The position numbers were made by a program, and so were the translations under genes. A stretch of 5,187 nucleotides of DNA from a virus (lineage: Duplodnaviria > Heunggongvirae > Uroviricota > Caudoviricetes > Autographiviridae): IMG/VR virus record IMGVR_UViG_2778261646_000012; one strand, 5' to 3'. Position 1 is the stretch's first letter; each line of letters begins with the position of its first letter. Positions 1,896 through 4,841 of this stretch are shown here, in pieces. The notes below the pieces were generated by a model. The model did no database searches. It saw nothing but the letters and a program-made list of their open reading frames with translations, and was not told the DNA's origin.

Positions 1896-2234
1896 ATGAG
1901 AGACATTACAGCCAATGTGATCGTATCGATGCCTTCGCAACTCTTCACTATGGCGCGTTCTTTTAAAGCCGTAGCTAATGGCAAAATTTATATCGGTAAA
2001 ATTGACACTGATCCTGTAAATCCAGAAAACCAGATTCAGGTCTATGTGGAGAATGAAGACGGTTCTCACGTTCCTGTTTCGCAACCAATAATCATTAACG
2101 CTGCTGGATATCCTGTATATAACGGACAGATTGCCAAATTCGTTACCGTGCAAGGCCATTCTATGGCTGTTTATGATGCGTATGGTGCGCAGCAGTTCTA
2201 TTTTCCTAATGTGCTGAAGTATGACCCTGATCAA
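1896..2234 (+). other. P22 gp9-like head-binding (particle attachment) module of the tailspike
   Basis: Near-colinear similarity to the recalled P22 tailspike N-terminus up to the NVLKYDPDQ segment; similarity is lost downstream. The boundary is approximate. Confidence 0.75.
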
Positions 2235-4841
2235 CTACGGCAGCAATTAGAAGACCCAGATGGAGCGAATAAATACCCAAAACTTCAGATAGCAAGATGG
2301 AGAGACAGTTATGATGTAAGAGGTTGGGGGGCTATTGGTGATGGTGTTCATGATGATACATCAGCTCTATCAGAATTACTTTCTGTTGCAACAGGTGGTG
2401 AAAAGATAGATGGGCGAGGGCTTACTTTTAAAGTATCAACTCTTCCAGATGTCAGTCGATTTAAAAATGCTCGTTTTTTATTTGAGAGAATACCGGGTCA
2501 GCCTCTTTTTTATGCTTCTGAAGATTTTATCCAGGGAGAGTTATTTAAAATTACAGATACACCGTGGTACAACGCCTGGACGCAGGATAAAATGTTTGTA
2601 TATGACAATGTCATCTATGCGCCTTTTATGGCTGGAGACCGCCATGGTGTAAATAACCTCCATGTTGCATGGGTTCGCTCAGGAGATGACGGGAAGACCT
2701 GGACAACGCCGGAATGGCTTACAGATTTACATGAAAACTATCCCACAGTTAACTATCACTGCATGAGTATGGGGGTTGTCAGAAATCGCCTTTTTGCTGT
2801 AATTGAGACGCGGACCGTGAGAGGAAATAAACTGCAGGTTGCAGAGTTGTGGGATCGCCCAATGAGTCGCAGCCTTCGCGTTTATGGTGGTATAACGAAA
2901 GCAGCAAATCAGCAAGTCGCTTATATTCGCATTACTGATCACGGATTATTTGCTGGTGATTTTGTCAACTTCTCAAACTCTGGTGTTACAGATGTTACCG
3001 GGAATATGACGGTGACTACTGTTATTGATAAAAATACCTTTACAGTTACGACGCAAAATACCCAGGATGTGGATCAGAATAACGAGGGTAGATACTGGAG
3101 TTTTGGCACATCATTTCACTCGTCACCATGGAGAAAAACCAGTCTTGGAACTATTCCTTCTTTTGTTGACGGAAGCACTCCTGTTACTGAGATTCACAGT
3201 TTTGCGACGATTAGCGATAACAGTTTTGCTGTTGGCTACCATAATGGTGATATTGGTCCACGCGAGCTTGGGATACTCTATTTCTCTGATGCTTTCGGTT
3301 CTCCTGGTAGCTTTGTTCGCAGACGCATACCTGCAGAATATGAGGCGAATGCATCTGAGCCATGTGTAAAATATTATGATGGCATTCTGTATCTGACGAC
3401 CAGGGGGACATTAAGTACTCAACCCGGTAGTTCATTGCACAGAAGCTCTGATTTAGGTACATCATGGAATTCTCTTCGCTTCCCAAATAATGTTCATCAC
3501 TCAAACCTTCCTTTTGCCAAAGTTGGCGATGAGCTGGTTATTTTTGGCAGTGAGCGCGCATTTGGTGAGTGGGAAGGAGGAGAACCTGATAACCGTTATG
3601 CAGGAAATTATCCAAGAACATTTATGACCAGAGTTAACGTCAATGAGTGGAGTCTGGATAATGTAGAGTGGGTTAATGTTACTGATCAGATTTATCAGGG
3701 CGGAATAGTTAACTCTGCGGTTGGTGTTGGTTCAGTTTGTATCAAAGACAACTGGCTGTACTACATTTTCGGTGGGGAAGATTTTCTAAACCCATGGAGC
3801 ATAGGGGATAACAACAGAAAATATCCTTATGTTCACGATGGTCACCCGGCTGATTTGTATTGTTTCAGGGTGAAAATTAAACAGGAAGAATTTGTTTCAA
3901 GGGATTTTGTCTACGGAGCCACTCCTAACAGAACGCTTCCTACTTTTATGTCGACGTCAGGCGTGAGGACGGTTCCTGTACCCGTTGATTTCACAGATGA
4001 TGTTGCCGTCCAGTCACTGACTGTCCATGCAGGTACATCAGGACAAGTTCGCGCGGAAGTCAAACTTGAGGGTAATTACGCCATTATTGCGAAGAAAGTA
4101 CCGTCTGATGATGTTACCGCTCAGAGATTAATCGTTAGCGGCGGTGAAACAACGTCTTCAGCAGATGGTGCAATGATAACGTTGCATGGTTCCAGAAGCA
4201 GTACTCCACGTCGCGCGGTATATAACGCACTCGAACATCTTTTTGAGAACGGAGATGTTAAACCTTATCTTGATAATGTAAATGCTCTTGGTGGTCCGGG
4301 AAACAGGTTCTCGATAGTTTATCTTGGCTCCAATCCTGTGGTTACCAGTGACGGAACATTAAAGACAGAGCCGGTCTCTCCTGACGAAGCATTGCTGGAT
4401 GCCTGGGGTGACGTCAGGTATATCGCTTATAAATGGCTGAACGCTGTCGCTATAAAGGGGGAAGAAGGGGCGAGGATACATCATGGTGTAATCGCGCAGC
4501 AACTTCGTGATGTTCTTATTTCTCACGGACTCATGGAAGAAGAAAGCACAACATGCCGCTATGCCTTTCTTTGCTATGACGATTATCCCGCAGTATATGA
4601 TGACGTCATTACTGGCCAAAGGGAAATGCCGCTGACTGATAATGACGGGAGCATCATTGTTGATGAGGATGATAATCCAGTGATGGTAATAGAAGACATC
4701 ATTGAGCGCGTTGAAATAACGCCAGCAGGATCTAGATGGGGGGTCAGACCTGATCTCTTATTCTATATCGAGGCAGCATGGCAGCGCAGAGAAATGGATA
4801 AGATAAAAGCTAGGTTAGACTTAATAGAAGGGAAGCACTAA
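1896..4841 (+). CDS. Tailspike protein, endosialidase type (endo-N-acetylneuraminidase-like), 981 aa
   Basis: ATG at 1896 with GGAG (1884..1887) 8 nt upstream. The first ~113 aa ([11 protein letters not shown]...[23 protein letters not shown]...IINAAG...VTVQGHSMA...NVLKYDPDQ) closely match the P22 gp9 head-binding domain. The central region carries two sialidase Asp-boxes, and the C-terminus has a Ser-x4-Lys motif as in self-cleaving tail-fibre chaperone domains. Confidence 0.9.
4350..4838 (+). other. C-terminal intramolecular chaperone / autoproteolytic domain (peptidase S74-like), predicted to be released after Ser818
   Basis: VTSDGTLK at aa 816-823, with Ser818 (nt 4347..4349) and Lys823 (nt 4362..4364) spaced as in the Ser/Lys dyad of phage K1F endosialidase and related tail-fibre proteins. 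The ~160-aa acidic C-terminal domain is of the expected size. Confidence 0.6.

Follow-up and report, generated by a model that had tools for sequence, protein, structure and literature searches.

The fusion of a P22-type attachment domain to an endosialidase is an already known textbook case, published since 2006. SiaK1 of phage CUS-3 (CP000711, ABQ88383; Stummeyer et al. 2006, PMID 16689790), a protein of 981 aa, is annotated in CP000711 as an 'endosialidase tailspike protein' on direct-assay evidence (IDA, PMID 16689790), and a review (PMC5380687) uses it as an example of tailspike module exchange. According to this review, the N-terminal domain is conserved in CUS-3, HK620, Sf6 and P22, and CUS-3's catalytic domain is common to K1F. 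In P22, the gene 9 product (gp9) has a head-binding domain ending in YDPDQ, followed by a right-handed beta-helix O-antigen endorhamnosidase, and the gene sits after ant. In the endosialidase of K1F (endoNF, gp17; 1v0e, 3gvl and 3gw6), the N-terminal region is 213 aa long. The key catalytic residues of endosialidases are named in PMC12632334 and PMC2955717.

We analysed a stretch of 5,187 nucleotides (the window) that contains one gene of this type.

1896-4841, + strand: siaK1-type tailspike gene, an intact ORF of 981 aa plus stop, orthologue of CUS-3 siaK1

A GGAG Shine-Dalgarno sequence (1884-1887) is located 8 nt 5' of the ATG. The region 1797-4841 is 99.18% identical to CUS-3 at the nucleotide level (blastn), and the gene differs from siaK1 at 23 nt, the protein at 13 aa (T2R, T43P, T121P, V207A, T233M, S309R, G366D, I548V, T832A, M932I, I967M, E968D and R969K). 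CUS-3 has the same protein length, architecture and junction, and its gene is likewise flanked by ant upstream and neuO downstream. In contrast, the window 5' of nt 1463 (5' part of ant and the arc region) is a different mosaic from CUS-3 and resembles CE10 and phiv205-1. The whole window is 99.96% identical to the prophage of Escherichia coli O7:K1 strain CE10, a meningitis isolate. We are practically certain that the gene is the siaK1 endosialidase tailspike of a CUS-3-like (Lederbergvirus, P22-like) E. coli K1 prophage and that it is a three-part fusion; none of the observations speaks against this. The window contributes no new kind of element.

The first part of the fusion and its boundary are the following.

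1896-2234, + strand: module 1, P22-type head-binding (virion attachment) domain, aa 1-113 (PF09008)
2234-2235, + strand: module junction Q113/L114 (YDPDQ/LRQQL), where the P22 similarity ends and the K1F homology begins

The preliminary description had claimed that the N-terminus tracks P22 gp9 almost position by position, and we observed 75.2% identity over aa 1-113 (tblastn) with a gap-free BLASTP alignment in this region. The Pfam model Head_binding (PF09008) was covered over its full length (positions 1-113 of 113; 221.5 bits, E 2e-66, cutoff 24). P22 gp9, Sf6 gp14 and the crystal chains of the P22-type head-binding domain (1lkt, 2vnl and 2vky) matched with E-values from 1e-45 to 4e-64, the PDB matches to P22 and Sf6 covering aa 1 to about 118. 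When the two parts were searched separately, a check proposed with the preliminary description, aa 1-113 matched only P22-type head-binding domains (P22, Sf6 gp14 and 186 phage records, mostly Lederbergvirus-like) and aa 114-981 matched only endosialidases (K1F, K1-5/K1E-type, phi92-type and 63D/K1H-type) and the C-terminal intramolecular chaperone. The head-binding domain ends with YDPDQ (aa 109-113, nt 2220-2234); in an alignment of the window protein with CUS-3, 611R6, EC.P3, Emek and P22, conservation extends up to this motif and is followed by divergence. Module 1 also hits 29 different tailspike PHROG families at their N-terminal end; among the 25 families listed, most are matched at positions 1-113. 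This shows that the module boundary is generic.

The endosialidase part, apart from its linker, consists of the following.

2331-2531, + strand: endosialidase N-terminal extension ('cap'), aa 146-212 (PF12218 End_N_terminal, 125 bits)
2532-3881, + strand: catalytic six-bladed beta-propeller, aa 213-662 (PF12217, 769.6 bits)
2865-3113, + strand: beta-barrel inserted in the propeller, aa 324-406 (PF12195, 153 bits)
3882-4346, + strand: stalk (triple beta-helix / tailspike domain), aa 663-817 (PF12219, 260.7 bits)
4347-4838, + strand: C-terminal intramolecular chaperone, aa 818-981 (PF13884 Peptidase_S74 from aa 818)

All four families from cap to stalk (PF12218, PF12217, PF12195, PF12219) scored above cutoff and occur in the canonical order, so that a sialidase-type body in place of the P22 beta-helix, as initially proposed, was confirmed. 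The BLASTP alignment with K1F gp17 starts at L114 (K1F L214) and extends over 867 aa up to the C-terminus, with 62% identity. In the PDB search, the endoNF entries 3gvl and 1v0e matched aa 145-817 (E = 0), endoNF also matching aa 698-979; the solved endoNF structures begin at the cap and end at the equivalent of T817. Relative to K1F endoNF, no domain is missing from the window protein, and both the catalytic residues and the site of chaperone cleavage are conserved. The two differ in the N-terminal region, where the window protein has the P22-type adaptor, and in the propeller region, where it carries a 7-aa insertion (FVDGSTP, aa 422-428).

The active-site residues H250, R456, E488, R503 and R554 are identical to K1F H350, R549, E581, R596 and R647, the R549 to R456 mapping being read off the BLASTP alignment. 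By analogy with the 99%-identical CUS-3 protein, for which it is known (GenBank IDA, PMID 16689790), the window protein would have endo-alpha-2,8-sialidase activity. The chaperone is matched by the endoNF C-terminal domain (3gw6, E 3.5e-93). The RefSeq boundary between mature K1F protein and C-terminal domain lies at 910/911, and K1F S911 and K916 correspond to the conserved S818 and K823. The protein is accordingly predicted to cut itself between T817 and S818 via the S818/K823 pair. Schulz et al. are said to have described the catalytic role of such a Ser/Lys pair in 2010 (NSMB).

At the nucleotide level, the similarity to P22 gene 9 amounts to 73.4% over window positions 1830-2234 and none was found further on (blastn). 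In the plot of sliding-window identity to gene 9 along the gene, which had also been proposed as a check, identity went from 0.62-0.91 to 0.4-0.5, the background for unrelated DNA, past about nt 2235, and the breakpoint was placed at 2234/2235. The body is unrelated to that of the P22 endorhamnosidase, as it is to the receptor-binding bodies of the Sf6 gp14 and HK620 tailspikes, which are grouped with P22 gp9 and have a related head-binding domain. Past residue 113, the BLASTP alignment with P22 gp9 gained no more than 28 identities in 135 columns, 42 gaps included, and this was regarded as noise. A phmmer alignment extended the gp9 homology to aa 140, and this was rejected as extension noise on the basis of BLASTP and blastn. 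Thus, homology to gp9 does not run through the whole protein, and head-binding similarity is clearly present at its N-terminus. Nucleotide similarity to two other P22-like tailspikes ends at 2236 (Emek) and 2249 (EC.P3). The claim that similarity stops after about nt 2235 therefore holds against P22, where it ends at 2234, and fails for some E. coli P22-like tailspikes, which share the linker to about aa 157.

The same junction occurs independently in CUS-3, 720R6, phiv205-1, CE10 and 40 IMG/VR contigs, and the E-values on both sides of it are 1e-50 or better. That the junction is an artefact, either of chimeric assembly or of resemblance by chance, is refuted by these occurrences, and we give it next to no probability. 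The 35-mer spanning the junction had no match among the species-representative genomes, where the representative E. coli is devoid of the prophage. Among the related prophages, nucleotide diversity falls about 15-fold at the junction, from 0.077 to 0.004-0.005; polymorphic sites are present at 2225, 2234 and 2235, and the population diversity drops after them.

Two further features lie immediately downstream of the junction.

2235-2330, + strand: linker or 'neck', aa 114-145, on the endosialidase side; it also precedes other bodies
2322-2360, + strand: GDG..DDT motif, aa 143-155, spanning the linker end and the start of PF12218

The linker (aa 114-145) is 56% identical to K1F aa 214-245. In P22-like prophages, a linker of about 45 aa (aa 114 to about 157) is also found in front of two or more further types of tailspike body. 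In 7 of the 40 IMG/VR loci having the junction 35-mer, two other bodies without Pfam matches (799 aa and 707-716 aa) are present; these loci keep the linker at 77-79% nucleotide identity, and their divergence does not set in before about nt 2366. A query of 52 aa (aa 114-165, extending 20 aa past aa 145) matched 6 PHROG families and 137 phage records, the latter spanning podo-, myo- and siphoviruses and including one protein annotated as a K5 lyase. These observations, together with the break of the ZX5 exchange at nt 2417 described below, raise the possibility that the boundaries are nested: the linker to about aa 157, including the GDG..DDT motif, would be a separate connector cassette and the receptor-specific body would start after it. 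However, the break relative to P22, Emek, 611R6 and EC.P3 lies at aa 113-118, the K1F homology begins exactly at L114 and the diversity falls at 2235/2236 rather than at about 2366. We place nested boundaries slightly short of an even chance; in view of the latter three observations, they refine and do not replace the model of a junction at Q113/L114.

The GDG..DDT motif is conserved in K1F (GWGAKGDGVTDDT) and ZX5 (FGAVGDGINDDS). It had been described as pectate-lyase-like, and its position (aa 143-155, nt 2322-2360) was confirmed; the label was not, as PF12708 matched only below threshold (14.1 bits, cutoff 27, E 0.041; profile positions 4-26, 23 residues). Assignment to this pectate-lyase family was also rejected on the ground that the body is a propeller and not a beta-helix. 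At the level of the motif, a resemblance to pectate lyases is retained.

Within the body, a long segment is shared with another phage.

2417-4809, + strand: ZX5-like segment, 99.5% identical at the nucleotide level to the tail-fibre gene of Uetakevirus vB_EcoP_ZX5 (QTH80017)

Its left breakpoint is located inside the cap domain, at aa 174/175. The ZX5 tail fibre departs from the window protein at its adaptor, which is a different one about 230 aa long, and at the start of the cap, which has diverged. The segment marks a second, recent exchange. CUS-3 is not mentioned in the published description of ZX5.

We consider it an even question whether the junction at Q113/L114 is a currently active splice point, recombining through the YDPDQ codons and the connector of about 45 aa, and not a single ancient fusion. 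If it is active, the connector would provide a homology patch of universal use, through which unrelated virion types could exchange depolymerases for capsule and O-antigen. Bearing on this question, a body that is nearly clonal (0.004-0.005) goes together with numerous diverged alleles of the head-binding domain (0.077). The ZX5 exchange (99.5%, breakpoint nt 2417) would be a case of this from the very recent past.

Beyond the homologies, the breakpoint and the catalytic-residue conservation that we observed, a working model of the protein can be proposed. The trimer of aa 1-113 would dock the spike onto a P22-type tail machine. Parent et al. are reported to have presented a reconstruction of the CUS-3 virion in 2014. 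The region of aa 114-817 (linker, cap, propeller with barrel, and stalk) would bind and depolymerise the polysialic acid K1 capsule, giving access to the outer membrane, and the chaperone (aa 818-981) would drive trimer folding before being cut off at S818. The junction falls directly after YDPDQ, with which the head-binding domain of every P22-like tailspike terminates, and P22-like phages change receptor specificity by exchanging what lies downstream of it. Enzymatic activity and presence on virions are attributed here by analogy, from the literature on the 99%-identical CUS-3 protein, and we infer that the window copy is expressed and assembled. The module swap retargeting a P22-like virion to K1, as put forward in the preliminary description, is supported by both domain searches, the nucleotide breakpoint and the identity to CUS-3 siaK1.

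Such a protein explains the infection of K1-encapsulated E. coli of the neonatal-meningitis type by a temperate P22-like phage, and it is the standard example of host-range change through tailspike module exchange. Our additions to it are modest: a precisely mapped breakpoint (nt 2234/2235, with nested ones near 2366 and 2417) and the contrast between a near-clonal endosialidase body and a diverse attachment domain. These population data are relevant to the engineering of tailspike chimeras and to judging how fast K1 specificity spreads among phage backbones.

The retargeting would not take place here if the gene were a leftover of a defective prophage that equips no virion. The end of an IS26 element at window positions 1-127 truncates the neighbouring ClpP-like gene. 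The 99.96%-identical CE10 prophage is damaged: its tailspike copy is annotated as frameshifted, it is devoid of morphogenesis genes, and immediately after kil/cIII, an IS3 lies beside a DNA-transfer gene that is truncated. IS3 or IS21 insertions in the tailspike gene, or truncations of it, are also found in phiv205-1, in several E. coli genomes and in the locus L026. From these signs the local prophage may be decaying. On the other hand, all 981 codons of the ORF are intact and no functional residue is missing, an intact tailspike gene 100% identical across all compared segments exists in IMG/VR (locus L019), and the remainder of the prophage lies outside the window. A defective leftover is a reading that we lean against, while considering it a realistic possibility.

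The surroundings of the gene are P22 immI-like, with mnt/arc-type ribbon-helix-helix genes, sar RNA, ant, terminator, tailspike and neuO in the same order as in CP000711.

1796-1895, + strand: ant-tailspike intergenic region, the 'bsq1 boundary sequence' of CUS-3 (CP000711 annotation), with the ant terminator and the tailspike RBS

Arc-like ribbon-helix-helix and Ant domains were detected with Pfam, and sar RNA scored 67.6 bits. The terminator-like site after ant consists of a stem-loop (1813-1832) and a T-run, and a terminator is annotated at the corresponding position in P22. Over the two 60-nt intervals that begin at 1796 and 1826, the intergenic region has an identity of 0.95-1.00 to Emek, EC.P3 and 611R6. 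Two other ORFs, 1836-2234 (- strand) and 2410-2652 (+ strand), matched no Pfam or PHROG family and were therefore treated as non-genes. Downstream, the poly-psi heptanucleotide repeat of neuO (AAGACTC) extends over 4998-5187 with at least 27 copies.

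The window covers one end of a P22-like prophage, from immI through the tailspike gene to neuO, with the following features.

1-127, end of an IS26 element
109-306, minus strand, truncated ClpP-like ORF
306-596, minus strand, Arc/Mnt-type ribbon-helix-helix ORF
604-804, plus strand, second Arc-like ORF
799-864, minus strand, sar antisense RNA (Rfam RF00262, 67.6 bits, full length)
866-1795, plus strand, antirepressor gene ant (KilA-N and P22AR_C domains)
1813-1832, terminator-like hairpin
1896-4841, plus strand, tailspike ORF of 981 codons
4996, ATG start of neuO, with a heptanucleotide repeat from 4998 to the window end

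The window matches the chromosome of the neonatal meningitis isolate E. coli CE10 (O7:K1) at 99.96% identity (1 substitution and one 1-nt indel), and phage CUS-3 from E. coli K1 RS218 at 98.7% identity from nt 1463 onward. Left of nt 1463 the window departs from CUS-3, and its arc/mnt region and 5' part of ant are instead like those of CE10, phiv205-1 and EC.P3. This change of resemblance marks a further mosaic breakpoint inside ant. As in immI of P22, the sar RNA lies between the arc-like gene and ant; its terminator hairpin is at 834-803. The phase-variable polysialic acid O-acetyltransferase gene, neuO, carries at least 27 copies of the poly-psi repeat (AAGACTC register), and the array extends past the window end.

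The preliminary description held that the tailspike follows P22 gp9 up to about residue 113 and that this similarity stops near nt 2235; both points were borne out. Pfam matched aa 1-113 to the head-binding domain (PF09008) over the entire length of the model (221.5 bits). These residues share 75.2% identity with P22 gp9, and BLASTP aligned them to it without gaps. They also matched Sf6 gp14 and the solved chains of the P22 head-binding domain (E 1e-45 to 4e-64). In nucleotides, the window shares 73.4% similarity with P22 over 1830-2234 and none after, and a sliding-window profile showed identity dropping to background after ~nt 2235.

The body was described as sialidase-type, and we observed that the K1F endosialidase (endoNF) aligns by BLASTP from L114 (K1F L214) through the C-terminus with 62% identity over 867 residues. 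Pfam found all the endosialidase domains in canonical order, as listed here.

aa 146-212, N-terminal extension
aa 213-662, propeller
aa 324-406, barrel inside the propeller
aa 663-817, stalk
from aa 818, chaperone

Solved endoNF structures match the module at E = 0. The catalytic residues reported for endoNF (H350, R549, E581, R596 and R647) correspond to identical residues H250, R456, E488, R503 and R554 in the window protein. The K1F RefSeq record places the mature spike/chaperone boundary at residue 910/911; its counterpart S818 and K823, a lysine five residues on, are both conserved. For the CUS-3 orthologue, the annotation cites direct-assay evidence of endo-alpha-sialidase activity (PMID 16689790). 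By the established mechanism, the N-domain trimer would dock onto the P22-type tail and the K1 polysialic acid capsule would be bound and cut by the propeller and stalk; the C-terminal chaperone would fold the trimer and be released afterwards.

A multiple alignment of the window protein with CUS-3, 611R6, EC.P3, Emek and P22 showed conservation up to and including ...NVLKYDPDQ and divergence immediately after, with K1F entering at LR(Q/S)Q.... Both sides thus place the boundary at Q113|L114 (nt 2234|2235). The 113-aa module is present in 186 phage records and matches the N-terminal end of 29 PHROG tailspike families, 343-954 residues long, at positions 1-113 in most of the 25 families listed. 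As judged from these matches, the boundary after residue 113 is generic.

The 13-residue GDG..DDT motif lies at aa 143-155 (nt 2322-2360), exactly as first described; as a signature it is genuine and recurs at the N-terminus of tailspike bodies. Its assignment as pectate-lyase-like did not extend to membership of that family (PF12708): the isolated aa 114-215 scored 14.1 bits (cutoff 27, E 0.041), and this sub-threshold match is limited to the first 23 profile positions. The body of the window tailspike is a propeller, not a beta-helix.

A 35-mer spanning the junction was found in 40 IMG/VR contigs, 33 of which carry the endosialidase and 7 other bodies. The latter are of two types, 799 aa and 707-716 aa, with zero Pfam matches beyond the head-binding domain. 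All 7 contigs retain the linker to ~aa 157, through the GDG..DDT motif, and diverge only from ~nt 2366. P22-like prophage tailspikes with other bodies are located as follows.

L012, 3161-5560
L025, 11528-13678
L045, 2825-4948, minus strand

Searched alone (aa 114-165), the linker matched 137 phage records, including K1F-type podoviruses, phi92/phAPEC8-type myoviruses, 63D/K1H-type siphoviruses and one annotated K5 lyase. The tailspike boundaries may thus be nested, one at 113/114 and a second near the end of the linker.

Endosialidase-bearing P22-like loci, representing 19 distinct haplotypes (comparison set L011-L050, L001, which is CUS-3, and L005), were compared for nucleotide diversity. 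It was 0.077 over 1896-2219 versus 0.004-0.005 over 2255-2700, and the final clustered polymorphisms are at nt 2225, 2234 and 2235. The loci were chosen by exact match over 2236-2254, a selection that cannot explain the low diversity across the following 2.5 kb. The N-module differs by a mean of 25.8 nt in DNA and only 5.6 aa in protein. The left flank (ant and boundary sequence) is likewise mosaic, and the neuO promoter region downstream is 98-100% identical. This pattern is compatible with recurrent recombination at the junction and the recent spread of a block comprising the endosialidase and neuO.

The tail-fibre gene of the temperate Uetakevirus vB_EcoP_ZX5 (2501-4893 of its locus) is 99.5% identical in nucleotides over window 2417-4809, versus only ~50-65% just upstream of nt 2417, and its N-terminal adaptor differs from that of the window tailspike. 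On nucleotide identity, the match indicates a very recent exchange of the endosialidase between unrelated podovirus backbones, with a breakpoint inside the cap domain. The publication on ZX5 treats the tail-fibre domains and does not mention a relationship to the CUS-3-type tailspike.

The observation of a mosaic tailspike is thus confirmed, and its interpretation as a module swap is supported by the homologies on both sides and by a review describing the same mosaic (PMC5380687). That review describes an N-terminal domain conserved across CUS-3, HK620, Sf6 and P22, together with a CUS-3 catalytic domain that is an endosialidase shared with K1F, and presents this arrangement as its example of how module exchange alters specificity. 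In later work, CUS-3 is regarded as the Lederbergvirus that targets the K1 capsule (PMC11990801). The feature is therefore already known: it is the well-characterised mosaic tailspike of CUS-3. The diversity drop at the population level and the sharing of the connector cassette add modest detail to this picture and are not a discovery.

The tailspike ORF is intact in the window, with an identical copy in IMG/VR; its neighbourhood shows decay. The last 127 nt of IS26, identical at 100% to thousands of its copies, occupy window 1-127. They end in the inverted repeat TTTGCAACAGTGCC at 114-127 and adjoin and truncate the ClpP-like ORF (109-306, minus strand). CE10 lacks this insertion. At window 3781, CE10 RefSeq has 1 extra base (GAAGACTTTT versus GAAGATTTT), and the annotation of the CE10 tailspike is that of a frameshifted pseudogene. 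The reading frame is preserved in the window copy and in CUS-3. Other copies (L002 3430-8825, L026 and E. coli H97/H106/H107/H109) are disrupted by IS3- or IS21-family elements or truncated, that of L026 to a 259-aa ORF. These data suggest that the endosialidase tailspike gene is often inactivated in resident prophages. The CE10 prophage has kil/cIII followed by an IS3 and a truncated DNA-transfer gene, and appears to be a remnant. It occupies 830676-843674 and adjoins ybhB-bioA, near the lambda attachment region; the vB_EcoP-720R6 record carries the same ybhB-bioA flank.
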